DNA of 64,000 nucleotides from Candidatus Bathyarchaeota archaeon (GCA_018396535.1 JAGTQC010000003.1:988-64987); one strand, 5' to 3'; positions 1,141-58,047 are shown, counted from the stretch's first letter. Numbers and translations are program-made. The notes: generated from the letters alone by a model not told the origin.

Positions 1141-2250
1141 ATGTCGGATGTGTTTTGGGTGAATTATAGAGCTACTAGTATGGATATACTTTCTAAGCTG
1201 GAGAGGTTGATAGAGGAATCAGGTGTATTCGAAGATATAGGTTCAGGTGATATAGTCGCTGTGAAGGTTCATCCAGGTTTATACGGTAGTGTAAGGTATC
1301 TTAGACCGGTATATGTGAGGAAGATAGTCGAAGTGATTAAAGCTAGGGGTGGTAAACCGTTTGTAACCGAAACTGTAGGGCATAATCCGATGGGTAGTAG
1401 AGGTACTGCTGAAGGATATATACGTGAGATGATAGCTAACGGTTTCACATCTGAAACCTTAGGTGCACCTATACTCATAGCCGATGGGTTATGGGGTTTA
1501 GACGAGGTTAAGATCGAGATAGATGGGTTAAAGCTTAAAGAGACACGTATAGCTTCTGCTATAGCATACTCAGATTTCCTAGTATCGATAGCTAGAGTTA
1601 AGGCTCATGGATCCGCAGGCTTTGCAGCAGCTATAAAGAATGTAGGTGTAGGATGCGTCAGTCGTGCTGGTAAAAGTAGGATACACTTTTCTTCAGGTCC
1701 ATCGATCAATGTAAAGTTATGCGATGGATGCAGTCTATGCGTTAAATACTGTAAGCTATCTGCTATAAAGCTTAGAAACGGTATACCTGTAATAGACCCC
1801 TCCAGATGTAATCAATGCCTTATATGCGTTAACGTATGTCCAAAGAAGGCTTTAACAGCTGATAGAACGGAACCGCCTGAGACACAGTATCGTATAGCTG
1901 ATTCAGCTCTAGCAGTATCGAAAGCTTTGAATGGTAGGATAGCGTACATAAACGTGGCCGTAGAGATAACGCCTCAATGCGATTGCGGTAGGAGGGTTGA
2001 TACACCTATAGTACCGGATCAAGGTATATTCGCTTCTAGAGATCCTGTAGCTTTGGATAGGCTAGTAGCCGATAAGATAGTAGCAGCTCCAGGTATACCC
2101 GGATCGGCGGCAGAGGATGCGGGAGCTTTAGATCCTGGATCAGATAAGATACTAAAGATAAGAGGTACAGATTGGAGGATACTTCTCGAAGCAGCTGAGA
2201 AAATCGGTTTAGGCTCTCAGAGATACCATGAAGTATTCCTAGATATATGA
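1141..2250 (+). CDS. DUF362-domain protein with an inserted 2x[4Fe-4S] ferredoxin module
   Basis: Two CxxCxxCxxxCP motifs (CDGCSLCVKYCK, CNQCLICVNVCPKK). A K-x-H...G...KN-x-G motif typical of DUF362. A second DUF362 paralog lies at 18594. Confidence 0.65.
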   Translation: MSDVFWVNYRATSMDILSKLERLIEESGVFEDIGSGDIVAVKVHPGLYGSVRYLRPVYVRKIVEVIKARGGKPFVTETVGHNPMGSRGTAEGYIREMIANGFTSETLGAPILIADGLWGLDEVKIEIDGLKLKETRIASAIAYSDFLVSIARVKAHGSAGFAAAIKNVGVGCVSRAGKSRIHFSSGPSINVKLCDGCSLCVKYCKLSAIKLRNGIPVIDPSRCNQCLICVNVCPKKALTADRTEPPETQYRIADSALAVSKALNGRIAYINVAVEITPQCDCGRRVDTPIVPDQGIFASRDPVALDRLVADKIVAAPGIPGSAAEDAGALDPGSDKILKIRGTDWRILLEAAEKIGLGSQRYHEVFLDI

Positions 2251-2295
2251 TAGAGAGTTCGTTTAAATACTAGATATAACACCGAATTATATTCT

Positions 2296-3162
2296 ATGCC
2301 TCTCCTAGAGAGAAGGCGTTTAGGCCGTATAGGCTATGAAGCTAGCATATTGACGCTCGGCGGATGCGGTGTAGGTAAGCTAGATCAGAGGGAAGCAGAT
2401 AAGGCTATAGAGTTAGCTCTAAGTTATGGTGTGAATATAGTCGATGTAGCTCCGAGCTATGGTGAAGCTGAATATAGGTTGGCTAGATGGATTCAGATGT
2501 ACAGGGATAGACTCTTCATAGCGGAGAAAACATTGGAGCGTACGAGGGAGGGGGTTTTAAAGGAGCTTGATAGAAGCCTAGATAGACTCGGTGTAGAGTA
2601 CTTCGATCTATACCAGATGCACGCTTTAGGAGAGCCTACCGATATAGAAAAAGTCTTCAGTCCAGGAGGAGCATTAGAAGCCTTCATAGAAGCTAGGGAT
2701 ACAGGGTTGACGAGATATATAGGTATAACCGGGCATAGGGATATGCGTATACTCTTGAAAGCTCTAAAACTATTCGACTTCGACTCAGTGCTACTACCCG
2801 TGAATATAGCTAGCATGACAGCACCTTCTCCTGAGAACGATTTTAGACCTATCCTCAGAGAAGCTATCGAACGCGATATAGCAGTCATAGCTATAAAGGC
2901 TATAGCTAAAGGTAGATGGAAGGATGAGAGGAGATACTCGACATGGTATGAACCCTTAGATGATCCGTATGATATAGATCTAGCTGTATGGTTTACGCTA
3001 TCCCAAGAGCCTGTAGCTACATACTCCCTTCCATGCGATGTAAGGCTATGGCCCCTAGTACTGGATTCCGCTGTAAGATTTAGAAAGCTATCCATAGAGG
3101 AGCAGGCTGAAGCTATAGAGTATGCGAAGAGGAAGGGTTTAACCCCGCTCTTCCCAGAATAG
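2296..3162 (+). CDS. Aldo/keto reductase family oxidoreductase
   Basis: N-terminal GYEASILTLGG...YGVNIVDVAPSYG and overall TIM-barrel AKR signature. Length 288 aa. Confidence 0.7.
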   Translation: MPLLERRRLGRIGYEASILTLGGCGVGKLDQREADKAIELALSYGVNIVDVAPSYGEAEYRLARWIQMYRDRLFIAEKTLERTREGVLKELDRSLDRLGVEYFDLYQMHALGEPTDIEKVFSPGGALEAFIEARDTGLTRYIGITGHRDMRILLKALKLFDFDSVLLPVNIASMTAPSPENDFRPILREAIERDIAVIAIKAIAKGRWKDERRYSTWYEPLDDPYDIDLAVWFTLSQEPVATYSLPCDVRLWPLVLDSAVRFRKLSIEEQAEAIEYAKRKGLTPLFPE

Positions 3163-3217
3163 TATCTATAGAGCTGAAACCTCTAGAAACGCTCGTTCCA
3201 CGAACACCTATGTAGAT

Positions 3218-4249
3218 CTAGATGGTGCTACTAATGATGAAATCTGATGGTCTACTACCTACAACTAGTCGATAATACTCATATCCACTACTATCTACAA
3301 CCTTTTCAACCTTACCCTCCGCTACTACGATTTCCCCTCTCCTCGCCTGCTCGCAGAACCTACCTCTAAAGGAGACGACCTCCTCTAGAGGCTTAGCATA
3401 ATCGACGCCGTATAGAAACTCAACGTTGGAAACTATATATTTACATGGAGTGAATATGGAATCGCTATCATCATCCACCCTAGCCTTTATCCTAGCGTAG
3501 CCTATACGTTTATATAATCTATCCCCATAGGATTCCCCAACTTCATGTCGATCAGGTATAAACCTTACGAAGAAATCCCTACCTAGAAACTTTCCTTGAT
3601 GAACCTTCCTAGCTTCAATCCTACAGAAATCGTCGAAAGACATCCATGTATCCCTAGATCTAAAATCATACAGTCTCCTAAGATCATCTAAACAATATGG
3701 AGAGAACATACCCTCCCCACTATTTAGTAGATTCTTCAACATATCGTGTATAGTGAAGCAATTCCTCCTACCATAAACTACTACATCTATATCGGAATCA
3801 AAACTATGTAGATCTACAAGTATAGATCCAGATATACCGATACAATCGGTGGGGATGCCTGTAAGATCGTGGAGGATATTTACGAGCGTTAACGCTTGAG
3901 ATTCTACGATATCTATATCGTAACCCTTGGATAACGTCGAAACCTTCTCTACCGGATCGTAGAGTTTAGCTATTAGATGTCTAGGTACACCCTCCATCCA
4001 ATCATCGAATACATGATCATAGTAGATGTAGTGCGGATACCCCATCATTAGGATGAAGTCTCTATCGCTTAGAGAATAGACCTTGCTATACCTTCTCCCG
4101 CATCTAACCCTACCTCCAGATGGCTCCTCGAAATACCTTAGATAAGCTATAACCCTATCAGGCGGATGAATTAACCCCTTAACATCGAATATCAAACCCT
4201 CGACGGTCTCTAGGAAATATCCTTCACGTACATCCATAGATTCAGCCAC
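3218..4249 (-). CDS. Pol-beta-superfamily nucleotidyltransferase (archaeal 'predicted nucleotidyltransferase' family), translationally coupled to the CitG-like gene
   Basis: hG[GS]x9-13DhD motif (GISGSILVDLHSFDSDIDVVVYG). Its start codon abuts the stop of the upstream CitG-like ORF (4249/4250). Confidence 0.6.
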   Translation of the reverse strand: MAESMDVREGYFLETVEGLIFDVKGLIHPPDRVIAYLRYFEEPSGGRVRCGRRYSKVYSLSDRDFILMMGYPHYIYYDHVFDDWMEGVPRHLIAKLYDPVEKVSTLSKGYDIDIVESQALTLVNILHDLTGIPTDCIGISGSILVDLHSFDSDIDVVVYGRRNCFTIHDMLKNLLNSGEGMFSPYCLDDLRRLYDFRSRDTWMSFDDFCRIEARKVHQGKFLGRDFFVRFIPDRHEVGESYGDRLYKRIGYARIKARVDDDSDSIFTPCKYIVSNVEFLYGVDYAKPLEEVVSFRGRFCEQARRGEIVVAEGKVEKVVDSSGYEYYRLVVGSRPSDFIISSTI

Positions 4250-5266
4250 CTAGAATCTCAAACCGTTTAGTAAAGCTATCATAAGCGATGAAGCTGTTAG
4301 ATCTGCAGTCGTACCTGGATTATACTCTCTACCTAAGCTATGAAGCTTCTCATCAAACCTCCATAGAGCATCCCGTCCTCTATCCGTAGTTAAGCCTCCC
4401 AGATCTAGTATCATCCCAGCTTCTATAGATACCCATAAAGTCTCCTTCACACCTACCTCCACAGCCCTTCTTATATCGCTTTCGATTTTAAGCCCTACAC
4501 TCCTAGCGATAAACGTATCTGGAAACATAGATAGAATCCTAAGGAAAGTATGAACTATAGCTGTGTTTATATCTTTAGTCGATTCGAAAGTTTCGATAAG
4601 ATACCTAAACCCGTATTCGAACGATATCTCCATACATGTAACAAGCTCCCTAGCAATATTATCGTATGATGAAGATTCGAGCATAACATCGTATAAGTTT
4701 ATACCATCCCTTAAGATCTTCATCTTCGCGCTACTATCGTATAGATCTGGGGCTCTACCATAGATAACTCTGCCCATCCTACTAGGGGGATTAGCCGTAG
4801 CTATAGCTCTATACACATTGATAGTATCTATAGGTATAGTAGAACGTATCACATTATCGATATTCCTCCTTAAAACATCCTCTTCAAACCCACCTCTCTC
4901 AATATATGTTTTAGTAGAAGCGATGGAGAGAGGTATGAATAGCAGACAGATACCTAGATGTGTATTCCCACCATGATGCGAAGATAAAACATCCATAACA
5001 GCCCTCCTGATAAGCCTCCCAACCCCTAGCTTCGATAACTGTACTCGCCCCCTAGCTGCCATAACACCTCTTAAAGCAGCATCTCTGATAGCCGATCCTA
5101 AAGCGATAGATCCAGCTATGAAATGCTCGAATCGTGTACCATCACGACTCCTACTCCTATGGACGTTACCAGGCTTAGGCCAACCGCTCACCTCTAAAGC
5201 TGAGGCAAGCTCAGCGCAACGCCTAACATACTCTACAAGCTGCTTTACATTCAATGCCCTCGGCAT
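4250..5266 (-). CDS. Triphosphoribosyl-dephospho-CoA synthase (CitG/MdcB) family protein
   Basis: N-terminal ...SGWPKPGNVHRS... and ...HGGNTHLGI... motifs typical of CitG/MdcB ATP:dephospho-CoA triphosphoribosyltransferases. 338 aa. Confidence 0.6.
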   Translation of the reverse strand: MPRALNVKQLVEYVRRCAELASALEVSGWPKPGNVHRSRSRDGTRFEHFIAGSIALGSAIRDAALRGVMAARGRVQLSKLGVGRLIRRAVMDVLSSHHGGNTHLGICLLFIPLSIASTKTYIERGGFEEDVLRRNIDNVIRSTIPIDTINVYRAIATANPPSRMGRVIYGRAPDLYDSSAKMKILRDGINLYDVMLESSSYDNIARELVTCMEISFEYGFRYLIETFESTKDINTAIVHTFLRILSMFPDTFIARSVGLKIESDIRRAVEVGVKETLWVSIEAGMILDLGGLTTDRGRDALWRFDEKLHSLGREYNPGTTADLTASSLMIALLNGLRF

Positions 5267-5631
5267 GACTCGAATATTATCTAGTGGATGTTGAATCTAA
5301 ACTTAGCTTTACCATCTAAATCCTCCTTATGGAAACTTTCACACCATACCCTCAAATACCATGAGGAATGCTATGTAAGGATAGATATAGCCTCTAAGTT
5401 GGTCGATCCAACAGGGTAGCCTAAAATCTTAAACCCTGATGGAGCTTTAAAGGCTAGATTTATATCTGAAATTGAAGTCTTAAGATCCTATACGCTAATG
5501 GAAAGCTAGTGGTTACGAAGAGAAGGGTATATATCTAAAATAGCGGAGATACTAATTGAACAAGTAGAAAGAAAGGCTTCATAGGTAAAGCTTAAACCAA
5601 TTACATGGTAAAATGAGCTAGATAGAGGGAA

Positions 5632-5718
5632 GCCGGGGTAGCCTAGCCCGGTAAGGCGCCGGACTCGAGATCCGGTTCCCCTCATAGGGGATCAGGGGTT
5701 CAAATCCCCTCCCCGGCG
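5632..5718 (+). tRNA. tRNA-Ser (anticodon CGA) with a long variable arm
   Basis: Acceptor stem GCCGGGG/CCCCGGC. Anticodon stem CCGGA/TCCGG with loop CTCGAGA. Variable-arm stem CCCC/GGGG. T-arm GGGGTTCAAATCCCC. No encoded CCA. Confidence 0.85.
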
Positions 5719-5754
5719 CCTACAATCTATCCCCGCTATAACCCATAGACCGAG

Positions 5755-7086
5755 ATGCTTATCTATGCTAGTAGATTACGATTAGCTTATGATATGGTGG
5801 AGAATCTAGCTCTGCTAGGTGGTACGAGAGCGTTAAATAGGATCGAAGAGTTAGACTCAGCTTCCCGCTGGCCTATATTCGGTGATGAAGAGAAGAAAGC
5901 TGTATGCGAGGTATTGGATAGCAGGGATCCATACTCGTATATAGGAAGGTTTGAAGATGAATTCGCATCATATCATAACGTTAAGTTTGCTCTAGCCCAT
6001 AATAATGGGACATCTGCTCTACACTCAGCATACTTCGCCGTCGGTGTGGAGCCTGGGGATGAGGTTATAACACCAGCTTATACATGGCATCTACAAGTAG
6101 CTCCGATCCTAGCTCTCCACGCTATCCCAGTCTTCTGCGATATAGATCCTAGGACGGGTTGTATAGATCCGAGGGATATCGAACATAAGATATCCCATCG
6201 GACTAAAGCTATAGTAGTCGTACATCTGTATGGTGCGGTAGCCCCTATGGATGAAATAATCTCGATAGCAAAGGATCATGATATAGCTGTGATAGAGGAT
6301 TGCTCCCATGCTCACGGCGCCAAGTATAAGGGTAGGAAGGTTGGTACGATAGGCGATATAGGCTGCTTCAGCTTGCAAGCTAGTAAACTTATGACGGGTA
6401 TAGAAGGTGGAGTTATGATAACGAATAACGAGGAGTATTATGAGAGAGCATGTATCTTAGGGCATTATGAGCGTATACCTAGACTTAGGATGGAGAAGTA
6501 TCGTAGATACTATCAGACAGATAGAGATATGGCTCCATCATGTTTCGGGTTTAAATATCGTATTCATCCATTAGCTGCAGCTATAGCTTCTATACAATTG
6601 AAGCATCTAGATGAATGGAATTCTATAAGGAGGAGCAATATGACGTATATAACCAAAGCTTTATCTATCATCGGAGAAGAGTTGGGGTATATATTCGAGC
6701 CGCCATACGAAGCACCCGGGACGGAGCGTCTATGGTACGGCTATGTATGTCAATATCATCCTGATAAAACCGGGGTATCTAAAAGCCGTTTCATAGAGGC
6801 TTTGAAAGCTGAGGGTCTACCTGCATCTGATATGCGTGGATTCCTGCCAGTATACTGGAATCCCATATACGAGGAGAGGAGTGTATGGCGTGAAGGCTAT
6901 CCGTTTGATGCATCTTACGTAAGCCGTAAGATAACGTACGAGAGAGGTATATGTCCAGAAGCTGAAAGAATATGGCTTCGAACCATACGCTTACCTGTAA
7001 TACATCGTAGAGTAAGCATAGAGCTACTCGAAGAATACGTATACGCTATCGAGAAGGTTCTAAGAAACATATCCAGTCTACGTTAA
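5755..7086 (+). CDS. DegT/DnrJ/EryC1/StrS-family PLP-dependent sugar aminotransferase/dehydratase
   Basis: NGTSALH...GDEVITPAYTWHL...DCSHAHGAKY...SFSLQASKLMT motifs. 443 aa. An alternative ATG lies at 5794. Confidence 0.8.
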   Translation: MLIYASRLRLAYDMVENLALLGGTRALNRIEELDSASRWPIFGDEEKKAVCEVLDSRDPYSYIGRFEDEFASYHNVKFALAHNNGTSALHSAYFAVGVEPGDEVITPAYTWHLQVAPILALHAIPVFCDIDPRTGCIDPRDIEHKISHRTKAIVVVHLYGAVAPMDEIISIAKDHDIAVIEDCSHAHGAKYKGRKVGTIGDIGCFSLQASKLMTGIEGGVMITNNEEYYERACILGHYERIPRLRMEKYRRYYQTDRDMAPSCFGFKYRIHPLAAAIASIQLKHLDEWNSIRRSNMTYITKALSIIGEELGYIFEPPYEAPGTERLWYGYVCQYHPDKTGVSKSRFIEALKAEGLPASDMRGFLPVYWNPIYEERSVWREGYPFDASYVSRKITYERGICPEAERIWLRTIRLPVIHRRVSIELLEEYVYAIEKVLRNISSLR

Positions 7087-7180
7087 TCCTAGAATATAAG
7101 CTATCCTTGAGCTAAACATATACGGCTGGCTATTCATAGAGTCAATCTTAAATAGGCTTTAAACAGATTCTTTTTCATCG

Positions 7181-8821
7181 ATGCAGGTAGAGATAGTCCC
7201 CCAACCTAAAACTCTAAGGTTTACAGGTAGATGGATCGAATTTGATGGCTTCGAGAATATCCCCGATTTTCTATCTAGAGAGTTCAATATACCTAAGGGT
7301 AAATGGGTAATAGAGGAGGTTGAAGGTAAAGGTACAGGTCTTAATGTGGGAGGAAACTGTGTAGAGGTATGGGGTGATAGGAACGTATGCTATGCTACTA
7401 TAATACAGCTAACTAGACTTAAACCAGGATACATACCCGAGGTATCTGTAGAGGAGGATTTCAACTTCAACTTTAGATGCTTCCACCTAGATATAGCTAG
7501 GGGAGGTGTTCCTAAACTCGAGTATTTCGAGAAACTTCTAAGACTACTCTTCCTATTGAAATACAATTATCTAGCTGTATACGTGGAGGATCTATTTCCA
7601 TGGAAATCCTATCCCGAGATAGGGGTGGATAGAGGTAGGTTAACATACGAGGAGTGGTCTAGGATAGTATGGTATGGAGCTCAGCTCGGAGTAGATGTCT
7701 TTCCATCGCTAGAGATTCTAGGGCATATGGAGCATATCCTAACGCTGCCGGGTTTCAGAAGGTTTAGTGAATGGCGTAGACCTGAAGAGGGTTGTCTAGA
7801 TGCTTCGAACGAAGAAGCTAGAATTTTCGCTATGACTCTACTCGAGGATGCTCTAGATCAGACTGAATCGAAATATATACATGTAGGTGGAGATGAAACG
7901 TGGGCTCTAGGTAGGGGTAGAAGTCTAGATGCTACTGGTAGGTTTGAAGGGCCTAAGCTATACCTAGAATTCTATAGGGAGGTTGTGGAGAGGGTTAAAC
8001 GTAGAGGGAAGATACCGATACTATGGGGTGATATGATATCTGGGATGTATCTTAGAGAAAAGGAGGCGTTGCTATGGAGGGATCTAGTAGAAGCAGATCT
8101 ATGGAAATCAGTCATAATAGCTAACTGGGATTATAGTCCGGAATCCAAAGAGTATTTCAAACGTAAGATAAAGATATTCTCGGATAGAGGCTTAACACAG
8201 TTTGTTTGCCCAGGGCTTGCTAACTGGAATAGATATTATCCAGATTTCGATATAGCTTTAACAAACCTCAGAAACTTTCTGGATGCAGCTAGAGAGGAGG
8301 GTGTTGATGGATTTATCATAACGGCTTGGGGTGATGATGGAGAGGAATGCCTATTCTCACTCATAGAGCCGTTGATACTAGCAGCTATAGAGTATGGTGA
8401 AGGTGATGGTAGATGGGAGGATAAGTGGTCTGCCTTAATAGGTGAGCATAGGAGTATAGTCGAGGTTAGGAGATCCCTCGGTAGGATGGAGATAGCTGAA
8501 CATCTAAAACCTACGTTATTCCAGCCTAGATCTAAGCTTAAAGATAGAGGGAGCGTCTACGAATACTGGAAGTCTACGGCTAAAACCTTATCGAATCTAA
8601 ACCTGCCTAGAGATCTAGAATTCATAAGGAGATGTATAGAACTAGGTTTAAAGAAGGTAGACGGCTTAGATTCTATCTCAGATTATATCGGTTTATCTAG
8701 TATATACGCAGAGTTATGGCTGAGTGAGAGGAAGCCTAACGGGTTGGAGAGGGTTCTCGGTAGATTCTGGTCTGCAGCTGCCTACCGTGATCTAGAGCTA
8801 CGTTTACGTATAGGTGGATAG
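7181..8821 (+). CDS. GH20-like beta-N-acetylhexosaminidase family glycoside hydrolase
   Basis: FHLDIARG... and HVGGDE catalytic-region motifs typical of the GH20 TIM barrel. 546 aa. Confidence 0.5.
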   Translation: MQVEIVPQPKTLRFTGRWIEFDGFENIPDFLSREFNIPKGKWVIEEVEGKGTGLNVGGNCVEVWGDRNVCYATIIQLTRLKPGYIPEVSVEEDFNFNFRCFHLDIARGGVPKLEYFEKLLRLLFLLKYNYLAVYVEDLFPWKSYPEIGVDRGRLTYEEWSRIVWYGAQLGVDVFPSLEILGHMEHILTLPGFRRFSEWRRPEEGCLDASNEEARIFAMTLLEDALDQTESKYIHVGGDETWALGRGRSLDATGRFEGPKLYLEFYREVVERVKRRGKIPILWGDMISGMYLREKEALLWRDLVEADLWKSVIIANWDYSPESKEYFKRKIKIFSDRGLTQFVCPGLANWNRYYPDFDIALTNLRNFLDAAREEGVDGFIITAWGDDGEECLFSLIEPLILAAIEYGEGDGRWEDKWSALIGEHRSIVEVRRSLGRMEIAEHLKPTLFQPRSKLKDRGSVYEYWKSTAKTLSNLNLPRDLEFIRRCIELGLKKVDGLDSISDYIGLSSIYAELWLSERKPNGLERVLGRFWSAAAYRDLELRLRIGG

Positions 8822-8858
8822 AGGATTGGCATCAGCTAGCTATAGCGAAACTATCGGT

Positions 8859-9857
8859 ATGATACTATGCGGGGGGTTGGGGAAGAGGCTTAGACCGCTT
8901 ACAGACTCCACGCCTAAGCCTCTGATAGAGATAAAGAATGGATACACCATACTAGATAAGCAGATACTCGATATGAAGTATGCAGGTATAAATCACGTGA
9001 TACTTCTAACAGGCTACCTTCACGAGAAGATAGAGGAGAGGTATGGTAGCTATTGGAATGGTATACGCATAGACTACTCCATCGAGGAGGATCCGATAGG
9101 TACCTGGGGTGCTGTATCTGCTGCCCTAGAGAAATTTAGACCTAGATGTAAGATACTTGTATCGAATGGTGATATAGTAACAGATCTAAACATAAGGAGG
9201 ATGATATCCTCCTCTAGGTATCCTGTTGCAATGTTCATCGTTACTATGAAGAGTCCATACGGTATAGTAGAGATTAGCGGTGATAAGATAATAGGATTCC
9301 TAGAGAAGCCGCAGCTACCATACTACATAAACGGAGGCTTCTACATCGTTAACGATAGCTTCGATATACTAGAGTTTATCGGTAGACCCAAATCCTACTC
9401 TGATCTCGAGAAGGATGTATTCCCTAAGCTAGCTAAATCAGGTCTACTAGGATACTATATGGAGCCCTACGATGTATTCTGGAAATCCATAGATACTGTG
9501 AAGGATCTAGAAGAAGTACGTAAAGAATTCGCATATAGGGAGGATAAACCATGGGGGTATGAGAAGCTAATCGAATCATCCCGATCGTACATATATAAGA
9601 AGATACTTATCAAAGAGGGTTATAGGATACCTCTACATAAGCATAGAGCTAGCGAAACAATATACGTCGTCTCAGGTAAGATCAGGGTTGATGTAGACGG
9701 TAGAGAGTTTCAACTAGAGCAGGGTGAAAAGTATACTATAGGAGTCGACTCTGAGCATGCAGTATCAGCTATCGAGACCGCAATGATAGACTCCATACTA
9801 TCTCCAAGTATCGGTGATATCCACTGGCTCGATAACCGATGGATTATAGAGATGTAA
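8859..9857 (+). CDS. Sugar-phosphate nucleotidyltransferase with a C-terminal cupin domain (mannose-1-phosphate guanylyltransferase-like)
   Basis: MILCGGLGKRLRPLT...KPLI NTP-transferase motif. C-terminal cupin HxH region. The longer ORF from 8814 overlaps the GH20 gene, so 8859 is the likelier start. Confidence 0.7.
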   Translation: MILCGGLGKRLRPLTDSTPKPLIEIKNGYTILDKQILDMKYAGINHVILLTGYLHEKIEERYGSYWNGIRIDYSIEEDPIGTWGAVSAALEKFRPRCKILVSNGDIVTDLNIRRMISSSRYPVAMFIVTMKSPYGIVEISGDKIIGFLEKPQLPYYINGGFYIVNDSFDILEFIGRPKSYSDLEKDVFPKLAKSGLLGYYMEPYDVFWKSIDTVKDLEEVRKEFAYREDKPWGYEKLIESSRSYIYKKILIKEGYRIPLHKHRASETIYVVSGKIRVDVDGREFQLEQGEKYTIGVDSEHAVSAIETAMIDSILSPSIGDIHWLDNRWIIEM

Positions 9858-18593: not shown

Positions 18594-20081
18594 ATGTGCG
18601 ATAGATATAGGAATAGGGTGTTGGAGCATATAGATAGGAGGAGATTCTTCTTCATAGGATTGCTAAGCCTAATATGGCTCATCCTTAGAAGCGGTACTAA
18701 ACCTTCAAGAATAACATATCCCTGTCAAAGGGTAGCTCTAGCGAACGTTCAGCTATGGCTCATATTGTACATGGCTCCAATCATATATGCATTTCACGGT
18801 TTAAATCTATCATCTCTTAAAAACTTTTTCAAACGTAAGAAGCTATTCACCATAGCTCTAGCCTCATGTATAATTATAGCAAGCTTTACTACAATCTGGT
18901 TTATCTTAGAACGTAGTCGTGAAGTATCTGTGGAACTATCTATAGAAGGGAGGTTAGCATCTAGAAGCCCGTCATCCGATATATTCGTTATCGTAGGTAC
19001 TAATGGTTATGATGGAGGATTCCGTAAGCTTATCGAACTTATGTCAACCTATGGTATTAGATTTTATAGATCTGATACTGTAGGAGAGCTTAAGGGTCCG
19101 GATGGGTTGATAGCTCGCGATGACGTCGTTATAGTGAAGGTTAATTCTCAATGGGATGAGAGAGGTGGGACAAATACTGATCTTCTAAAAGCTGTTATAG
19201 AAGCTATAGTAGGTCATCCAGATGGATTTATAGGTGAGATAGTCGTAGCGGATAATGGTCAAGCACAGTATGGACCGTACGGTTTTGGAGGAAGTTTAAA
19301 CTGGGATCGTAACAATGCTGAAGATAGGGCGCAGTCTGTACAGAAGGTTGTAGATCTGTTCTCTAACAGATATAGGGTATCCACCTACCTCTGGGATTCT
19401 ATAACACTTAGAAGAGTTAAAGAGTATATCGAAGGGGATATGGAGGATGGATACGTTGTCTACGATAATCCTGATCCTAAAACTGGTATAATCGTATCCT
19501 ATCCTAAGTTCAAGACGAAGTTTGGTACATATATAAGCTTCAAGTATGGATTATGGGATCCGGAATCTAAGAGCTACCGTCAAGATAAGCTTAAGGTAAT
19601 CAATATACCTGTACTTAAGACGCACTCCATATATGGGGTTACCGCATGTGTAAAGCACTATATGGGTATCCCATCTGATAGGCTTACACAGCATAACCCG
19701 CATATATCCGTAGGATCGGGTGGTATGGGTACGCTCATGGCTGAGACTAGATTCCCCACATTGAATATACTCGATGCCATATGGATCAATCCGCATCCTA
19801 GAAGCGGTCCTAGAACACCTTACAATTCTGCGGTTAGAGTTGGGGTTATAGCAGCTAGCCTTGACCCTGTAGCGCTAGACTACTGGGCTTCGAAGAATAT
19901 ACTCATGAAAACTGCTAGTATTCTAGGTTATAGAGATCTATCATCTATGGATCCAGATAATACTTCACCAGGATCATTCGGTTCATGGCTTAGATTATCG
20001 ATGGAAGCTCTTAGAACAGCAGGATACCAGGTTGTAATGGGGGATGAATATATAAACGTATACGTGTACAGATACAGGTAG
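18594..20081 (+). CDS. DUF362-domain protein with an N-terminal twin-arginine (Tat)-like signal and TM segment; probably exported
   Basis: DRRRFFFIGLLSLIWLIL Tat-like signal. A C-terminal LKTHSIYGVTACVKHYMG DUF362 motif, comparable to KAHGSAGFAAAIKNVG in the 1141 gene. Confidence 0.45.
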   Translation: MCDRYRNRVLEHIDRRRFFFIGLLSLIWLILRSGTKPSRITYPCQRVALANVQLWLILYMAPIIYAFHGLNLSSLKNFFKRKKLFTIALASCIIIASFTTIWFILERSREVSVELSIEGRLASRSPSSDIFVIVGTNGYDGGFRKLIELMSTYGIRFYRSDTVGELKGPDGLIARDDVVIVKVNSQWDERGGTNTDLLKAVIEAIVGHPDGFIGEIVVADNGQAQYGPYGFGGSLNWDRNNAEDRAQSVQKVVDLFSNRYRVSTYLWDSITLRRVKEYIEGDMEDGYVVYDNPDPKTGIIVSYPKFKTKFGTYISFKYGLWDPESKSYRQDKLKVINIPVLKTHSIYGVTACVKHYMGIPSDRLTQHNPHISVGSGGMGTLMAETRFPTLNILDAIWINPHPRSGPRTPYNSAVRVGVIAASLDPVALDYWASKNILMKTASILGYRDLSSMDPDNTSPGSFGSWLRLSMEALRTAGYQVVMGDEYINVYVYRYR

Positions 20082-34398: not shown

Positions 34399-36303
34399 AT
34401 GTGTAGGTGGATAAGTATGCCCTATAATACCGTTATCATAGATACATCATCTAGTCCGTATGCTAAGCTTCACCCTATACCTATCGAAGAAGTACGTCTT
34501 GAAGATGGATTTTGGGCTCCTAGGCTTAAGATTCTTAGAGAGGTTACCATTCCATCTCAGTACAGTCTACTTGAGAGTACTGGGCGTATCGATAACTTTA
34601 GACGTGCAGCAGGGAAGGTATCTAAACCGTTTTCAGGCTTGATCTTCAACGATAGCGATGTATATAAGTGGATAGAAGCTGTAGCATTCCTTCTCGCATA
34701 TGGTTTCGATGAGAATCTCTACAAGCTCTCCAGATCTGTTGTAGAGGAGGTTGTAGCTGCTCAGGATGATGATGGTTATCTCAATACATACTTCATGTTT
34801 GAATTTAAGAATATGAGATGGCGTAACCTTAGAGATAGCCATGAGTTATACTGTGCTGGCCATCTTATGCAAGCTGGGGTAGCATACTATAGATCTACCG
34901 GTAGGAGGGATCTTCTCGATTCTGCTATAAGGTTTGCGGATAACATATACGATACATTCGTAGCTAAAGGCTTCCGATGCGTAGATGGTCATCCTGAAGT
35001 TGAGATGGCTTTAGTAGAATTATACCGTACGATCAGGGATAGTAGGTATCTAGATCTAGCATGCTTCTTCATAGATAATCGAGGTCTAGGTCTTATAGGT
35101 GGAAGTCCATACCATATAGATCACAAACCGTTTAGAGAGCTTTCAGAGATAGTGGGGCATGCGGTACGTGCACTCTACTTGAATTGTGGAGCTACAGATG
35201 TATACATGGAGATAGGGGATGATAGGATTTGGGAAGCGTTACAGCGTCTATGGCGTAGTATGGTGTATCGTAAGATGTATATAACGGGGGGTGTCGGATC
35301 CAGGTATGAGGGTGAAGCCTTCGGTGATGATTATGAGCTTCCAAATTATAGAGCATATTCTGAAACTTGTGCTGCGATAGCTAGCTTCATGTGGAATTGG
35401 AGGATGCTTAACGCTAGTATGGATGCATGCTATACGGATATTATGGAGCTTGCATTGTATAACGCTATCCTATCAGGTATATCGTTGGATGGTAGATCAT
35501 ACTTCTATGTAAACCCGTTAGCGGATAGGGGTCGTCATAGGAGGCAGGATTGGTTTACATGTGCATGCTGCCCACCTAATATAGCTAGGCTTATAGCTTC
35601 GATCCCAGGGTATATCTATTCTAAATCCGTAGATGGGTTATGGGTTAACCTGTATATTCAGAGTACGGTTTCTACTAATCTAGAATGTGGTAGAGTTAGG
35701 TTGAAGCAGGTTACCGATTACCCATGGGATGGTAGGGTGAAGCTTATTGTCGAGCCGGAGAGGGAGGATGAATTCTCCATATACATACGTATACCTGGAT
35801 GGTGTCGTAACTTTAGCGTAGAGGTTGATAGGGAGAGGATCGATGCTAAGGTTAGGCCGCCGTCATATCTAGAGGTTAGACGGGTATGGAGGTATGGGGA
35901 TTACATAAGTTTGTATATGGATATGCCTGTAGAGCTTATGGTTTCTCATCCATGGGTTACCGAGAATAGTAGTAGAGTCTCTATAGTGAGAGGTCCGTTA
36001 GTATATTGTGTAGAGCAGGTTGATAATGAGGGGTTTGATATATGGGATCTAGCTATCGATCGTAGTATAAGATTCGAGTTGAAGCTATGTGAGGATTTTT
36101 TAGGACGTATAGTGAGGATAGTGGGGGATGGGTATACCTTAGAGTTTGAAGGTGGAGAGATGCTCTATACCAATATAGATAATCTACGTTATAGGGTTAG
36201 AAGGGTTAGGTTTAATGCTATACCCTACTATGCTTGGGCGAATAGGGGTCCTGGATCTATGATCGTATGGATCCGTTTAATCGATGGGTATTTGAAAGTA
36301 TAG
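34399..36303 (+). CDS. Glycoside hydrolase family 127 (DUF1680) beta-L-arabinofuranosidase-like
   Basis: CACCPPN zinc/catalytic cysteine motif characteristic of GH127 (HypBA1-type). 634 aa. Confidence 0.75.
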   Translation: MCRWISMPYNTVIIDTSSSPYAKLHPIPIEEVRLEDGFWAPRLKILREVTIPSQYSLLESTGRIDNFRRAAGKVSKPFSGLIFNDSDVYKWIEAVAFLLAYGFDENLYKLSRSVVEEVVAAQDDDGYLNTYFMFEFKNMRWRNLRDSHELYCAGHLMQAGVAYYRSTGRRDLLDSAIRFADNIYDTFVAKGFRCVDGHPEVEMALVELYRTIRDSRYLDLACFFIDNRGLGLIGGSPYHIDHKPFRELSEIVGHAVRALYLNCGATDVYMEIGDDRIWEALQRLWRSMVYRKMYITGGVGSRYEGEAFGDDYELPNYRAYSETCAAIASFMWNWRMLNASMDACYTDIMELALYNAILSGISLDGRSYFYVNPLADRGRHRRQDWFTCACCPPNIARLIASIPGYIYSKSVDGLWVNLYIQSTVSTNLECGRVRLKQVTDYPWDGRVKLIVEPEREDEFSIYIRIPGWCRNFSVEVDRERIDAKVRPPSYLEVRRVWRYGDYISLYMDMPVELMVSHPWVTENSSRVSIVRGPLVYCVEQVDNEGFDIWDLAIDRSIRFELKLCEDFLGRIVRIVGDGYTLEFEGGEMLYTNIDNLRYRVRRVRFNAIPYYAWANRGPGSMIVWIRLIDGYLKV

Positions 36304-36308
36304 TCTTG

Positions 36309-37712
36309 TTATCTGAAGTGTTTAGCCATCTCCTCGTTCTCGCTTATGGATAGTAGAGCGTTTATTACGCCTTCAGCCTGCCTGGTATTCTTTGTTCTAA
36401 CATCTACTATCACCCAGTTGAATAGCGTATCTCTCCCACCTTCTAGATATGCTTCGAGAGCCCACTCCATCCTAAGGAGTCTGGGGTAGATTACGTAGTT
36501 CATTATACGTTTAGGTAGCTTCTTTACTCCAATCCTATGTACACCCTTTCCATCTATCTCTACAGGTATCTCTACAGCTACGTTATCTGGTATACCCTCT
36601 ACTACTCCTTGATTCGTAACGTTAACCTGGTAGACCCCCCTTATATCGTTTACTATAGAGTCTATGATAGGTACTATCGATTCTCTACTCTTCCTAGGTT
36701 GTAGTAGTTGAGTTAGCGGTGTCGTTTCATCTTTTATAGCGGATATAGCTTTATTCAGCCATTCTTCATGTCTATCTAGGTAGATCTTCCATCCGATCTC
36801 TGAATCTGGTCCACCGGTAGGTCCGAACCATCTCTTCTTAACTCTCAGATTCCAGTGGTATTTCCATGTTCCTCCACGTACTGTATCACCTACAGGGTAT
36901 AATCCGTAGCATCTATACATATCTACTGCAGCTGGAGACATCTGTATATCGAATGGGCTTCTCTGCTTTCTACGCCATATCCTCCAGTACCTCTCTGAAT
37001 CCTTCTCTATCCATTCATCTATGAGTGGGTATGCATCCCTATCATCATACCTAAACTTTGTAAGCCAGATTACATGGTTGAATCCTATACACTCGAACTC
37101 GACCTTCTCCGGATCTAATCCTATCGTCTCCGCTATCTCGGAGTAGCCTAGATGCCCATGGCATAAGCCTACAACCTTAACCTTTGTCTCCCTGGAGAGT
37201 AGTGTTGTTCCCTCGAATACAGGGTTTGCTAGTAGGAATAGCCATGCATCTCTGCTTAGATCCTCTACATCTCTAGCTATATCCATCATGAGTTTGAACT
37301 GGTAGTAGCCCCATATCGTATGGTAGTCTGATACCATATTCCACTCGACGCTGTTTATACCTCTATAGTAGCCGTATTCTTCGCATATACTCCGCATCCT
37401 CTCGTAGTATCCATGCCCGCGGGCTAGGGCTGTATTTATAACGAAATCTGCATCCTCTATGGATTCCCTCCTATCAAGCGTCTTCTCGAATTTGAATTCA
37501 GCTTTAACTTCGGATGCATATCTCCTTGCGAAATCGTATACGAGGTTTAGCCTCTCCTCGTTTATATCCATGAAGGAGATCGTGCTCCCGTAGAGGCTGG
37601 GTGTGAGGCATAGGTCGCGGATTAGGGTTGCAGACCAAGCTATACTACCAGCGCCTATTACAGAAATCTTTATATCTATCATAGATTCCACCGAACGATA
37701 TAGATCATCCAC
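36309..37712 (-). CDS. Glycoside hydrolase family 4 (NAD+/Mn2+-dependent alpha-glucosidase/galactosidase or 6-phospho-glycosidase family)
   Basis: N-terminal ISVIGAGSIAW Rossmann motif and a VGLCHGH motif typical of GH4. 467 aa. Confidence 0.75.
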   Translation of the reverse strand: MDDLYRSVESMIDIKISVIGAGSIAWSATLIRDLCLTPSLYGSTISFMDINEERLNLVYDFARRYASEVKAEFKFEKTLDRRESIEDADFVINTALARGHGYYERMRSICEEYGYYRGINSVEWNMVSDYHTIWGYYQFKLMMDIARDVEDLSRDAWLFLLANPVFEGTTLLSRETKVKVVGLCHGHLGYSEIAETIGLDPEKVEFECIGFNHVIWLTKFRYDDRDAYPLIDEWIEKDSERYWRIWRRKQRSPFDIQMSPAAVDMYRCYGLYPVGDTVRGGTWKYHWNLRVKKRWFGPTGGPDSEIGWKIYLDRHEEWLNKAISAIKDETTPLTQLLQPRKSRESIVPIIDSIVNDIRGVYQVNVTNQGVVEGIPDNVAVEIPVEIDGKGVHRIGVKKLPKRIMNYVIYPRLLRMEWALEAYLEGGRDTLFNWVIVDVRTKNTRQAEGVINALLSISENEEMAKHFR

Positions 37713-37772
37713 TAATCCTCTTAAGCTTTACGTATATGGTCTAGGATCTGCTAGGTTTATTATCGTATTAGG

Positions 37773-38162
37773 TTAGCCTATTAGGCGGTCTATTATAGTC
37801 TTAACCTTCTCTATCTTCTTCAACATATGCTCCAGATACTCTATACCTTCATCTGTTATAGTGTATATCCTTTTAGCTGGGCCTCCATCATCTGTCTCCC
37901 ATCTAGAGTGTAGTAAGCCGTGTGCTTCTAGTTTACGTAGTAACCCGTATACGAGTGGTTTAGGTACATCTAGATTATACTTCTCCTTTAGGAGTGAGTG
38001 TATTTCGCTTCCATGCATAGACTTCTCCTTAACTAGTTTGAGTATAGCTATGTGGAGTAGTCCACGTATAGGTCCGAGATGTATCGGGGGGTGGTGTGGA
38101 TGGGGTAGCCTATGCTCGCATCCATGTGGATGTTTAGGGTGTATGTGTGGATCTATACACAT
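37773..38162 (-). CDS. PadR-family winged-helix transcriptional regulator with a His-rich N-terminal extension
   Basis: LLHIAILKLVKEKSMHGSEI...YGLLRKLEAHGLL PadR core. N-terminal HIHPKHPHGCEHRLPHPHHPPIH. Confidence 0.75.
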   Translation of the reverse strand: MCIDPHIHPKHPHGCEHRLPHPHHPPIHLGPIRGLLHIAILKLVKEKSMHGSEIHSLLKEKYNLDVPKPLVYGLLRKLEAHGLLHSRWETDDGGPAKRIYTITDEGIEYLEHMLKKIEKVKTIIDRLIG

Positions 38163-38168
38163 GTCTAC

Positions 38169-38202
38169 TCAGATATCTAGGTATATCAGATATCTAGATA
38201 TA
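38169..38202. promoter_or_regulatory. Two direct copies of TCAGATATCTAG(G/A)TATA, each with an AGATATCT palindrome, in the divergent PadR/GH51 intergenic region; candidate PadR operator
   Basis: Copies at 38169-38185 and 38186-38202, 7 nt upstream of the PadR ATG. Confidence 0.4.
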
Positions 38203-38260
38203 AGTGTTTACCATCATCGAGGATAGAGATTGTTTCTAAAGATTTAAGTCTAGTAGATGG

Positions 38261-56339: not shown

Positions 56340-57260
56340 ATGACAGAAGCTGTTGCTCCAGGTAAAATAATAATATGTGGAGAGCATTTCGTAGTATATG
56401 GTGAACCAGCTATAGTAGCCGCAGTAGATCTTAAAGCATATGCCTATGCTTCATTTGTAGATGAACTAGGTATACATATATACTCTAGTAGAGTATCCGA
56501 AGTCTCGTTACGGCCTATACATGAGGTTATAAAGCTTCTTTTAGAATCTAGGAATGTAAGGTTAGATAATAGGGGTATAGCAGTATCGATTAATTCAGAA
56601 ATACCGATTTCTGCTGGTTTAGGTTCTTCCGCAGCTGTGGCTATAGCGTCAATCTTAGCAGTATCAAAGCTCTTAGGGCTTAAGCTTAAGAAAAGAGAAG
56701 TTATATCATTAGGCGTTAGGGCAGAAGAGTTTATTCATGGTAGACCTTCAGGTATAGATCCAACTATATCCACTTACGGAGGAATACTCCTATTTAAGCG
56801 TGGAGGAAGGGTTAGACGGATAAAACCCACTAAGCCTATGGAGTTTGTGATAGCCGATTCAGGTATAAAGAGATCTACAGGTATTATGGTTCGTAAGGTA
56901 GGTGAGCTTTCTTCAAAGTACCCAGAGGTATTTCTAGGATTACGGTATACGATGCGTAAGATTGTGAGAAGAGCTATGAAAGCTATAGTCGAAGGGGAAA
57001 TCGAAATACTGGGAGATATGCTTAACCTAAACCACGGGCTCTTATCTGCTATAGGTGTATCGAATAGTAAGTTGGAGAGACTTGTATATGTGGCTAGAGA
57101 GGTTGGAGCTTTAGGTTCGAAGATTACCGGTGCTGGTGGAGGTGGATGTATTATAGCTCTAGCTAAACCTGGAGAATCAGATAGGATTGCTTCATCTCTT
57201 ATAGATGCTGGTGCTGAAGCAGTATATAAGGCTAGGATAGCAGAGGTAGGTGCTATGTGA
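56340..57260 (+). CDS. mvk: Mevalonate kinase
   Basis: APGKIIICGEHFVVYG N-terminal motif. GLGSSAA GHMP-kinase motif. Confidence 0.8.
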   Translation: MTEAVAPGKIIICGEHFVVYGEPAIVAAVDLKAYAYASFVDELGIHIYSSRVSEVSLRPIHEVIKLLLESRNVRLDNRGIAVSINSEIPISAGLGSSAAVAIASILAVSKLLGLKLKKREVISLGVRAEEFIHGRPSGIDPTISTYGGILLFKRGGRVRRIKPTKPMEFVIADSGIKRSTGIMVRKVGELSSKYPEVFLGLRYTMRKIVRRAMKAIVEGEIEILGDMLNLNHGLLSAIGVSNSKLERLVYVAREVGALGSKITGAGGGGCIIALAKPGESDRIASSLIDAGAEAVYKARIAEVGAM

Positions 57261-58039: not shown

Positions 58040-58047
58040 GATGGTAT

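Follow-up and report, generated by a model that had tools for sequence, protein, structure and literature searches.

What does a gene of the CitG superfamily, followed directly by a gene for a pol-beta nucleotidyltransferase, do in a Bathyarchaeia genome? The initial annotation of this locus had proposed a prosthetic-group synthesis and transfer system of the kind that serves citrate lyase and malonate decarboxylase or, alternatively, a novel nucleotide-derived cofactor pathway. Judging from the gene neighbourhoods of its relatives, we consider it very probable that the pair belongs to methanopterin-type cofactor metabolism, and we lean towards seeing in it a two-gene operon for late steps in the synthesis of a methanopterin-type C1 carrier, be it tetrahydromethanopterin (H4MPT) or a lineage-specific variant. 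Methanogenesis, anaerobic methane oxidation, the archaeal Wood-Ljungdahl pathway and bacterial formaldehyde oxidation all use H4MPT as their C1 carrier. To our knowledge, the enzymes that attach the alpha-ribosyl-5-phosphate and the hydroxyglutarate head group of methanopterin have never been identified.

The gene pair and its products

The window (the whole 64-kb stretch of DNA that was analysed) contains both ORFs at the coordinates and lengths (338 and 343 aa) initially given to them, as confirmed by ORF call. Their strand, left unstated at that time, is the minus strand, and transcription runs from the CitG-like gene (5266..4250) to the nucleotidyltransferase gene (4249..3218), the product of which is called NT-A below. 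Both ORFs have 100%-identical database proteins in Bathyarchaeia MAGs as well as thousands of homologues, and they are therefore real genes and not chance ORFs. The features of the pair are the following:

5266..4250, minus strand: CitG-superfamily gene, 338 aa, matching Pfam CitG over its full length
4238..4252, minus strand: CitG/NT-A junction with TAG stop, SD-like GGTGG and spacer, read from the sequence
4237..3218 (4249..3218 from GTG), minus strand: NT-A, pol-beta nucleotidyltransferase, from ORF call and junction alignment
3944..4237, minus strand: N-terminal small beta-barrel domain of NT-A, residues ~5-102
3545..3952, minus strand: pol-beta nucleotidyltransferase core of NT-A, residues ~100-235
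3785-3829, minus strand: catalytic G141-S142 ... S152-D153-x-D155 motif of NT-A
3230..3520, minus strand: C-terminal OB-fold domain of NT-A, residues ~244-340
3353-3373, minus strand: S-F-R-G-R-F-C block in the OB fold (R295, R297), subfamily-specific

The two genes had been described as translationally coupled, with a stop and a start codon sharing nucleotides. The coupling is indeed tight, but the codons do not overlap, as the TAG (4252..4250) abuts the GTG (4249..4247). Alignment of 24 co-directional loci places the start conserved among relatives at an ATG (4237), 12 nt downstream of the GTG (4249); an SD-like GGTGG (4250..4246) overlaps the CitG stop codon, and the junction has a 12-nt spacer to this ATG. 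NT-A thus probably comprises 339 aa, as compared to 343 aa if the GTG were used (residue numbers are counted here from the GTG at 4249). The junction of the closest relative (L007) has the same layout, and gaps of 9-30 nt are found in the other 22 co-directional loci. An Rfam scan of positions 2000-7000 detected no riboswitch or structured RNA near the pair, returning one tRNA alone. Ahead of the CitG-like gene there is a 12-codon uORF that has a perfect SD; relatives do not share it, and it probably arose by chance.

The membership of the 338-aa ORF in the CitG family is borne out by its match to Pfam CitG (PF01874; E=6e-59, 200 bits with a cutoff of 27), which extends over profile positions 2-283 of 284. 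This agreement holds at the level of the family and not of the equivalogs: among the NCBIfam CitG/MdcB models (TIGR03125 CitG, TIGR03132 MdcB, NF002315 and NF007503, with cutoffs of 270-480 bits, at least 272), the highest-scoring reaches 34.6 bits where 280 are required, with ~100 C-terminal residues and no more aligned. Over 65 aa, 32% of the residues are identical to E. coli CitG. PDB entry 3h9p, a 'putative' synthase, aligns along the whole chain (E=2e-15) and has the motifs N.H.G..LL..PL, FPD..I and NPGT.ADLTASS in common with the ORF. Judged by these scores, the protein is a distant member of the CitG superfamily and clearly not CitG or MdcB at the equivalog level.

The second ORF was rightly taken for a pol-beta nucleotidyltransferase, having the hG[GS] and DxD motifs and the alpha-beta palm fold of a minimal NTase core. 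The reported GSx(n)DxD motif is present as G141-S142 ... S152-D153-I-D155; all of 105 NT-A sequences have these residues, and in 108 paralogue sequences their conservation is at least 80%. An AF2 model (pLDDT 93, pTM 0.90) most closely matches Pol X, poly(A)/U polymerases, SSB, RPA, MCM-N and aaRS anticodon-binding domains, and the N-terminal barrel weakly resembles KOW/Sm folds. We found no solved or Pfam-described counterpart of the three-domain architecture (SH3-like barrel, NTase and OB fold), and none of the 2216 NT-A homologues has a dedicated Pfam or NCBIfam family. Conservation is spread over all three domains: G25, H28 and P29 of the barrel are invariant family-wide, with K24 subfamily-specific, P268, Y271 and E315 of the OB fold are conserved family-wide, and alignment adds the conserved acidic residues E212 and E300 in NT-A, which are, together with E315, candidates for the third catalytic carboxylate that the superfamily has on a neighbouring strand. 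Five basic residues (K24, R197, R229, R295 and R297) are fixed in NT-A and missing from its paralogues, a pattern that would fit a polyanionic substrate.

Genomic neighbourhoods

The two genes are conserved as neighbours. In 65 of the 74 assessable species-representative genomes (88%), CitG lies no more than ~3 kb upstream of NT-A in one of two architectures, co-directional with gaps of 3-30 nt (24 loci, Methanomethylicia and Culexarchaeum included) or divergent (41 loci). Counted over all loci, a CitG homologue stands beside NT-A in 65-67 of 80, a figure that comes mostly from Bathyarchaeia and is to a large extent due to shared ancestry rather than to independent events. Since no CitG turned up in the 8-10 kb around NT-A at any of the Asgard, Korarchaeota-type and bacterial loci that were examined, tight linkage is confined to Bathyarchaeia, Methanomethylicia and Culexarchaeia. 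In 54 of 80 loci, NT-A is coupled to an ECF S-component gene as well, which hints at the salvage of an imported precursor.

In the window the pair stands alone, as Pfam searches of about 50 ORFs detected no other H4MPT genes there. Related loci present recurrent neighbourhoods or fusions with H4MPT biosynthesis genes across unrelated lineages, with about seven independent settings in which NT-A or CitG has an H4MPT-linked context, and an H4MPT or methanofuran gene is located within 10 kb in 34 of the 44 loci of at least 15 kb. In L006 and L025, the pair is, by predicted gene content, inside an H4MPT biosynthesis cluster (MptH/MptG/MptE/DmrX-like, DUF447), where genes for an MptH-like protein (Pterin_bind/DUF4346), a GHMP RFAP-synthase-like protein, PTPS, DUF1464, a DmrX-like flavoprotein with Fer4, an MptE-like protein and DUF447 accompany CitG and NT-A. 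In L004 and ~30 more loci, MCH-FwdCABD adjoins CitG. Near NT-A we also found MptD, DUF447, MptA-type GCHY-1, an MptH-like protein and DUF1464 (Helarchaeota, L089); CODH/ACS, MCH, Fwd and FTR (L090); FTR-Fwd together with a complete ECF transporter (L091); and Fae-Hps (L092). Moreover, an HPPK-NT-A fusion is conserved in at least 17 bacterial-type protein clusters, in an operon with an AfpA-DmrB-like flavoprotein and a DUF6513 pterin-binding protein. In relatives, the pair supposed to have no cognate target in sight is thus found amid genes for H4MPT biosynthesis and utilisation, with NT-A itself fused to HPPK.

Previous work is in keeping with this context. CitG homologues (orf7) are members of methylotroph H4MPT gene islands (for example mch-orf5-orf7), a methanogen (Methanobacterium) also has a CitG homologue, and H4MPT-linked genes are known from Bathyarchaeota and Thorarchaeota. 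In the full-text literature searched, neither archaeal CitG homologues nor orf7 nor NT-A have been given a function. A molybdopterin-nucleotide transferase, an idea arising from MobB and FwdB/D neighbours, was set aside, as both HPPK, the fusion partner, and the biosynthetic genes nearby are of the 6-hydroxymethylpterin (folate/methanopterin) branch. The alternative of a nucleotide-derived cofactor pathway was the closer of the two initial readings, except for its novelty: the product is most likely a C1 carrier of the methanopterin type, already known as a molecule but with some biosynthetic steps still orphan.

Proposed role in late methanopterin synthesis and competing explanations

Methanopterin contains an alpha-(1->5)-linked ribofuranosyl-5-phosphate that is esterified to hydroxyglutarate. 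CitG starts from beta-ATP and, by inversion, makes an alpha-glycoside, whereas the usual products of PRPP-dependent transferases are beta. In the scheme that we propose, the CitG-like enzyme would use ATP as ribosyl donor, displacing adenine, and would transfer alpha-ribosyl-5-triphosphate to the free 5-OH of the 1-(4-aminophenyl)-1-deoxyribitol moiety of a dihydropterin intermediate, the same chemistry that CitG performs on the 2'-OH of dephospho-CoA. The 5''-triphosphate of this product would then serve as the 'NTP' of NT-A, which would transfer the phosphoribosyl-intermediate to the hydroxyl of (S)-2-hydroxyglutarate or another head group with release of PPi. This second step would create the phosphodiester of methanopterin, and in function NT-A would correspond to CitX/MdcG, which act on a serine hydroxyl. 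We see an even chance that the CitG-like enzyme installs the alpha-ribosyl phosphate; the use of its product by NT-A in forming the head-group phosphodiester is more tentative, and we hold it with less than even confidence.

Several observations count against this scheme, beside the isolation of the pair in the window, the confined linkage and the ECF coupling described above. The published scheme of White from 1996 reportedly has PRPP donate the ribosyl group, with hydroxyglutarate condensed afterwards in an ATP-dependent step of its own. The hosts of the HPPK fusions are bacteria with a pterin cofactor of undescribed structure. DUF447 (OrfY/MyfA), a neighbour of the pair, is needed for methylofuran maturation in Methylobacillus and is assigned in methylotrophs to methylofuran and not to H4MPT synthesis. 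Named NT-A members that were sampled come from Bathyarchaeia, Methanomethylicia, Culexarchaeia, Baldrarchaeia, Korarchaeota, Hel-, Thor- and Wukongarchaeota and one Acidobacteria MAG, and no cultured methanogen is among them; if NT-A is absent from methanogens, it is not a universal hydroxyglutarate-coupling enzyme. Finally, most genomes encode 2-3 catalytically intact NT paralogues, which a simple two-step scheme leaves unexplained.

The paralogues, in suggesting several related substrates, also speak for the most serious competitor, in which the genes belong to the methanopterin/C1-cofactor regulon, with CitG acting independently and NT-A not consuming its product. NT-A might possibly activate a small acid as an NDP-ester (the role of CofC in F420 synthesis, where the acid is phospholactate or PEP), nucleotidylate a pterin intermediate, or trap or remodel an ECF-imported precursor in a salvage route. 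This separation of functions would suit the Asgard, Korarchaeota-type and bacterial loci that have NT-A without a nearby CitG, the fusion of NT-A to an early pterin-branch enzyme (HPPK), and the ECF S-component that is translationally coupled in most Bathyarchaeia, with a full ECF module in L091. We nevertheless judge it unlikely, as the two genes are adjacent in 88% of assessable loci, form a co-transcribed pair with gaps of 3-30 nt in three archaeal classes, and follow a CitG-then-NTase order that mirrors the logic of CitG/CitX and MdcB/MdcG; non-adjacency in other phyla is compatible with a CitG gene elsewhere in those genomes. Moreover, we know of no nucleotide moiety in the structure of methanopterin. 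Service to methanofuran or another C1-pathway cofactor instead of methanopterin would agree with the formylmethanofuran dehydrogenase subunits that are the commonest neighbours in Bathyarchaeia, with DUF447 directly upstream of CitG in some loci and with the ATP-grasp ligase gene near NT-A in L090. This appears distinctly improbable, given that the biosynthetic neighbours (MptA/D/E/G/H-like, DmrX/DmrB-like) are pterin-specific, like the fusion partner HPPK, and that H4MPT is the cofactor used by MCH, Fae and CODH/ACS. As far as we know, methanofuran has neither ribose nor phosphodiester, and therefore offers no obvious role for CitG-type or NTase chemistry.

Clear CitG-family membership and a nucleotidyltransferase encoded immediately downstream, like in cit and mdc operons, also recall a CitG/CitX-type system that would place triphosphoribosyl-dephospho-CoA or a similar ribosylated nucleotide on an unidentified acceptor protein, and the neighbouring enzyme complexes (Fwd, CODH/ACS) are rich in cofactors. 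However, the CitG-like ORF is far under all CitG/MdcB equivalog cutoffs. The reported lack of citrate-lyase and malonate-decarboxylase subunits in the window is borne out by Pfam searches of its about 50 ORFs, and tblastn with E. coli queries found no CitC/D/E/F/X homologue in the window and 93 related loci (1.5 Mb in total). NT-A is, as stated initially, much larger than CitX/MdcG and is in addition unrelated in sequence: NT-A and 41 relatives gave no match to the CitX (PF03802) or MdcG Pfam models at E values up to 1, with E. coli CitX as control matching PF03802 at 1e-53, and hhalign of the NT-A profile against CitX returned a probability of 0.3%. The canonical CitG/CitX system was consequently rejected. 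Nowhere in the neighbourhood clusters near NT-A did a small ACP-like gene recur. The initial two-enzyme logic of synthesis and transfer stays plausible, but the protein acceptor finds no support; with pterin-biosynthesis genes as recurrent partners and HPPK as fusion partner, we regard any such prosthetic-group system as very improbable. The structural matches of NT-A, which are nucleic-acid enzymes and binders, and the weak KOW/Sm resemblance of its barrel would be accounted for by an RNA- or DNA-directed nucleotidyltransferase (tailing, repair or tRNA-modifying) with a nucleic acid bound to its OB fold. Such an enzyme would make the CitG neighbourhood incidental, and we give this explanation hardly any credence.

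The methanopterin scheme can also be widened to an unrecognised late module composed of the CitG-like enzyme, NT-A, one or two NT paralogues and the coupled ECF-type membrane protein, in which ATP, and not PRPP, would donate the alpha-ribosyl phosphate as a triphosphate and a new three-domain nucleotidyltransferase family would install head groups. We find this version rather doubtful; if true, the diversification of the paralogues would imply novel methanopterin variants, or their salvage or remodelling, in Bathyarchaeia, Asgard archaea and some Acidobacteria. The simpler two-gene scheme is economical, as a single ATP would be the source of the ribose and of the activated phosphate alike, and the CitG/CitX logic would be re-used on a small molecule. 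It offers specific, clonable candidates for the ribosyl-phosphate and head-group steps of methanopterin synthesis. If correct, it would revise the textbook PRPP-dependent scheme, explain CitG homologues in organisms without citrate lyase, correct the misannotation of thousands of archaeal genes labelled 'triphosphoribosyl-dephospho-CoA synthase' and assign a role to the unannotated nucleotidyltransferases of a large family (>2000 clusters). For uncultured Bathyarchaeia and Asgard archaea, H4MPT-dependent metabolism would gain markers and possibly inhibitor targets.

Comparison with known systems

The pol-beta NTases (NTP_transf_2, Polbeta; Pol X, CutA, GLD-2, CD-NTases and MenT) have the core fold and the hG[GS]...DxD motif in common with NT-A. 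They differ from it in their nucleic-acid or toxin-antitoxin context, as opposed to cofactor biosynthesis, and in having no counterpart of its three-domain architecture. In the case of F420, CofC/CofD carry out a nucleotide-activated transfer of a phospholactyl or enolpyruvyl group to a ribityl hydroxyl. As in the step proposed for NT-A, a hydroxy-acid is joined to an archaeal cofactor via a phosphodiester with the help of a nucleotidyltransferase step, and CofC/CofD are the conceptual model for an NT-A that acts separately from CitG. However, CofC is MobA-like (GT-A fold) and not pol-beta, has no sequence similarity to NT-A, and belongs to a route that needs no CitG-type enzyme.

The holo-ACP synthases CitX/MdcG occupy the same operon position relative to the CitG-type gene as NT-A. 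In their reaction, as in the one proposed for NT-A, a hydroxyl attacks the alpha-phosphate of a 5''-triphosphoribosyl compound and PPi is released. Differently from NT-A, for which a small hydroxy-acid is proposed as acceptor, they act on a protein serine; they have about half its size, the barrel and OB domains being extra in NT-A. CitG/MdcB (ATP:dephospho-CoA 5''-triphosphoribosyl transferase, EC 2.4.2.52) and the CitG-like ORF are members of the same PF01874 superfamily, have a C-terminal (N/S)PG..ADL motif in common and are encoded directly upstream of a transferase gene. The chemistry proposed for the ORF is also that of CitG/MdcB, with ATP as donor, adenine as leaving group and a 5-triphosphate alpha-glycoside as product. 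The acceptor of CitG/MdcB is dephospho-CoA, whereas that proposed for the ORF is the ribitol of a pterin intermediate, and the ORF lacks their cit/mdc context, in line with its low equivalog scores.

The methylotroph orf7 is, like the CitG-like gene, a CitG-family gene amid H4MPT genes, a likeness taken from published descriptions. Unlike the archaeal pair, it is bacterial and appears in the island gene lists without an NT-A-type NTase, in hosts that make dephospho-H4MPT (dH4MPT), which is devoid of the phosphate and hydroxyglutarate. This distribution fits the role proposed for NT-A. By this analogy, orf7 and the CitG-like gene probably have the same role in the pathway, namely the alpha-ribosylation of the ribitol.

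The gene pair in its window

The CitG-like gene and the neighbouring pol-beta nucleotidyltransferase gene, whose product is here called NT-A, encode proteins that are each 100% identical to Candidatus Bathyarchaeia MAG proteins, with homologues in the thousands by database search.

Features of the window
1141-2250 (+) and 18594-20081 (+): two DUF362-domain proteins, one with a 2x[4Fe-4S] insert
4237/4249..3218 (-): NT-A; residues numbered from the GTG at 4249
5266..4250 (-): CitG-like protein, 338 aa
5277-5315 (-): 12-codon uORF (MVKLSLDSTSTR and stop), with a perfect Shine-Dalgarno sequence, AAGGAGGA, 5 nt upstream
5632-5720 (+): tRNA-Ser (anticodon CGA; Rfam 62 bits, also found by ARAGORN)
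5755-9857 (+) and 34399-39814: carbohydrate genes
56340-60116 (+): compact isoprenoid operon

The initial annotation of a coupled pair is confirmed with minor corrections: the genes were said to share nucleotides, which is inaccurate, the TAG stop (4252..4250) directly abutting the GTG (4249). Relatives conserve as NT-A start the ATG at 4237, 12 nt downstream, and the GGTGG preceding this ATG, which resembles a Shine-Dalgarno sequence, overlaps the CitG stop codon. As had been noted, citrate-lyase and malonate-decarboxylase subunits are lacking: Pfam searches with some 50 ORFs spanning the 64 kb found none, nor any other recognisable methanopterin genes; the pair stands apart from other pathway genes.

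Upstream, a TATA-like TTTAGA lies about 30-35 nt from the CitG ATG. The uORF ends 10 nt ahead of the CitG-like start and, since it is not conserved among 23 related loci, is probably a chance feature. The tRNA occupies the 488-nt gap between the CitG-like gene and a divergent DegT-type aminotransferase. The carbohydrate genes around the pair appear to have no relation to it. Those to one side encode a DegT/EryC1 aminotransferase, a GH20 hexosaminidase-like protein and a mannose-1-P guanylyltransferase-like NTP-transferase with cupin, those farther off GH127, GH4 and an alpha-L-arabinofuranosidase. The isoprenoid operon encodes a GHMP kinase (mevalonate-kinase-like), an amino-acid-kinase-fold protein (isopentenyl-phosphate-kinase-like), an FMN-dependent dehydrogenase (type 2 IDI-like) and a polyprenyl synthase, a context that rules out this GHMP kinase as RFAP synthase. 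Another DUF362 gene lies close to the NTase of a related locus (L092).

The two protein families

By its sequence, the CitG-like protein is not an orthologue of CitG/MdcB. None of the four NCBIfam equivalog models exceeds 35 bits (cutoffs 272-477), and all align with its C-terminal third only; identity to E. coli CitG is 32% over 65 residues, around the common (N/S)PG..ADL motif. The one relative of solved structure is 3h9p (E=2e-15), a "putative" synthase from structural genomics. At L003 (8757-10000), one of three near-identical assemblies of that organism (GCA_038840715.1) has the CitG-like gene split into two ORFs (165 and 215 aa), reflecting either a strain frameshift/pseudogene or an assembly error.

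NT-A has three domains, namely a small N-terminal beta-barrel, a pol-beta core (residues about 100-235) and a C-terminal OB fold (about 244-340) matching SSB, RPA and MCM-N. Sequence, profile and fold searches of the PDB up to April 2026 found no full-length analogue. No relationship to CitX was detected (hhalign probability 0.3%), and no member searched matched the CitX or MdcG families. The family includes paralogues, present as 2-3 neighbouring copies that are pairwise 25-37% identical, all with intact G-S...D-x-D motifs; the window carries a single copy within its 64 kb. Among the residues common to all are the catalytic motif and G25, H28, P29, Y241, P268, Y271 and E315. The subfamily of the window also fixes K24, R197, R229, R295 and R297, the last two within an S-F-R-G-R-F-C block that the paralogues lack.

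Linkage and neighbourhoods in related genomes

A scan of one genome per species gave at least 594 loci. The 80 best of these (L007-L086), mostly from Bathyarchaeia but also from Methanomethylicia, Culexarchaeum and Baldrarchaeota, were analysed. After ORF clustering, 65 of 74 assessable loci have a CitG-family gene no more than about 3 kb upstream of NT-A (6 of the 15 loci without one have less than 1.5 kb of upstream sequence), and tblastn finds CitG in 67/80; as the loci are phylogenetically clustered, these counts overstate the number of independent events. The linkage is kept in two architectures and three archaeal classes. Type I, seen in 24 loci (among them the window and those of Methanomethylicia and Culexarchaeum), has CitG followed co-directionally by NT-A with gaps of 3-30 nt; type II (41 loci) has CitG divergent from NT-A, with a gene for an ECF-type S-component upstream of NT-A and tightly coupled to it in 37 of the 41. 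The Asgard, Korarchaeota-type and bacterial loci examined have no CitG gene next to NT-A. Full Bathyarchaeia type II synteny (MCH-Fwd-CitG, then ECF-S-NT-A-NT-NT; 48-49% identity to the window protein) is also seen on two contigs assigned to "Candidatus Acidoferrum" and "Acidiferrales bacterium" (L077, L078). These are probably archaeal contigs placed in the wrong bin and do not belong to the genuine bacterial clade around protein clusters P0542/P0260.

Neighbourhoods of NT-A family members
L006/L025 (Bathyarchaeia): MptH-like pterin-binding protein, GHMP-fold RFAP-synthase-like protein, PTPS, DUF1464, flavoprotein+Fer4 (DmrX-like), MptE-like, DUF447, CitG, NT-A
L004 and about 30 other loci: CitG abutted by MCH and FwdC/A/B/D
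L089 (Helarchaeota): NT-A, directly followed by a 359-aa gene of no known family, among DHNA (MptD), DUF447, GCHY-1 (MptA-type), MptH-like and DUF1464
L090 (Korarchaeota-type): NT-A between CODH/ACS+CooC and paralogue-MCH-Fwd-FTR-ATP-grasp
L091: complete ECF transporter and FTR-Fwd
L092: CooT/CooC and Fae-Hps
L087 5626-9086 and a second genome: HPPK-NTase operon; flavoprotein PF02441, 175-177 aa
L004 9255-10004; 54 of L007-L086: ECF S-component-like membrane protein (Pfam ECF-ribofla_trS, 6e-9)
L004 11029-13136; L006 11018-12067; position +1 in 63 and +2 in 38 of L007-L086: NT paralogues

Among loci spanning at least 15 kb, 34/44 have an H4MPT or methanofuran gene within 10 kb, and E. coli CitC/D/E/F/X queries matched nothing in the 1.5 Mb made up by the window and 93 loci. 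Fusions of NT-A with an entire HPPK domain (PF01288, 3e-40) occur in at least 17 protein clusters. In two bacterial-type genomes such a fusion is the first gene of an operon whose other members encode a flavoprotein (AfpA/DmrB-like) and a pterin-binding protein (DUF6513/DUF4346). This operon suggests that Acidobacteria-like bacteria have a pterin cofactor pathway not yet characterised; MTHFR, DUF5981 and LarA-like genes precede it in one genome.

A putative role in methanopterin side-chain assembly

The methanopterin side chain is aminophenyl-ribitol-(5->1)-alpha-ribofuranosyl-5-phosphate esterified to (S)-2-hydroxyglutarate, and we know of no enzymes assigned to the addition of the ribosyl phosphate and hydroxyglutarate. 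White's 1996 scheme reportedly employs PRPP, followed by an ATP-dependent condensation. Inversion by PRPP transferases normally gives the beta product; CitG converts beta-ATP to an alpha-glycoside with a 5-triphosphate, and with CitX/MdcG a hydroxyl attacks the alpha-phosphate, releasing PPi. Entirely from comparative genomics, we infer that the pair acts in this assembly: the CitG-like enzyme would yield the correct alpha anomer and leave a ready-activated triphosphate, which NT-A could couple to hydroxyglutarate. Genomic context is what was observed; every catalytic step is inferred. The scheme fits the ATP requirement, the order of the genes in the operon, the additional basic residues in NT-A and the finding that, for methylotrophs making the dephospho form, the listed islands include orf7 but no NT-A-type gene.

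CitG homologues such as orf7 are long-known, unassigned members of methylotroph H4MPT islands, in the order mch-orf5-orf7 in Methylosinus and, annotated as CitG, in Methylomonas; a Methanobacterium genome also lists one. M. extorquens makes dephospho-H4MPT, lacking the phosphate and alpha-hydroxyglutarate. H4MPT-linked genes are known to occur in Bathyarchaeota and Thorarchaeota, and AfpA, DmrB and DmrX are flavoprotein dihydromethanopterin reductases. The searchable literature yielded no functional assignment for orf7 or an NT-A-type NTase.

The initial annotation proposed a protein acceptor with no target in sight; the neighbourhoods and the HPPK fusion replace this reading with methanopterin side-chain assembly. 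Fwd and DUF447 neighbours, the latter (OrfY) having been assigned to methylofuran maturation, leave a small chance that methanofuran is the target instead. NT-A cannot be the universal hydroxyglutarate-coupling enzyme if cultured methanogens encode no NT-family member. A salvage/remodelling or CofC-like role is also allowed, given the one or two extra NT paralogues that most loci carry convergent to NT-A, catalytic motifs intact, and the ECF component. The latter is encoded in 54/80 loci, translationally coupled to the NTase or, as in several type I loci, ahead of CitG, and L091 (4496-7741) has a whole module (S, two ATPases, CbiQ-type T); no S-component gene adjoins the pair in the window. 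This component suggests that the pathway of NT-A and CitG is linked to the import of a vitamin-like precursor.

With side-chain assembly as the preferred reading, the pair should be of real interest to archaeal-cofactor specialists. The two-enzyme "synthesise-then-transfer" logic first proposed remains plausible: it would be that of the CitG/CitX system, but applied to a small-molecule cofactor and with a structurally novel NTase family.
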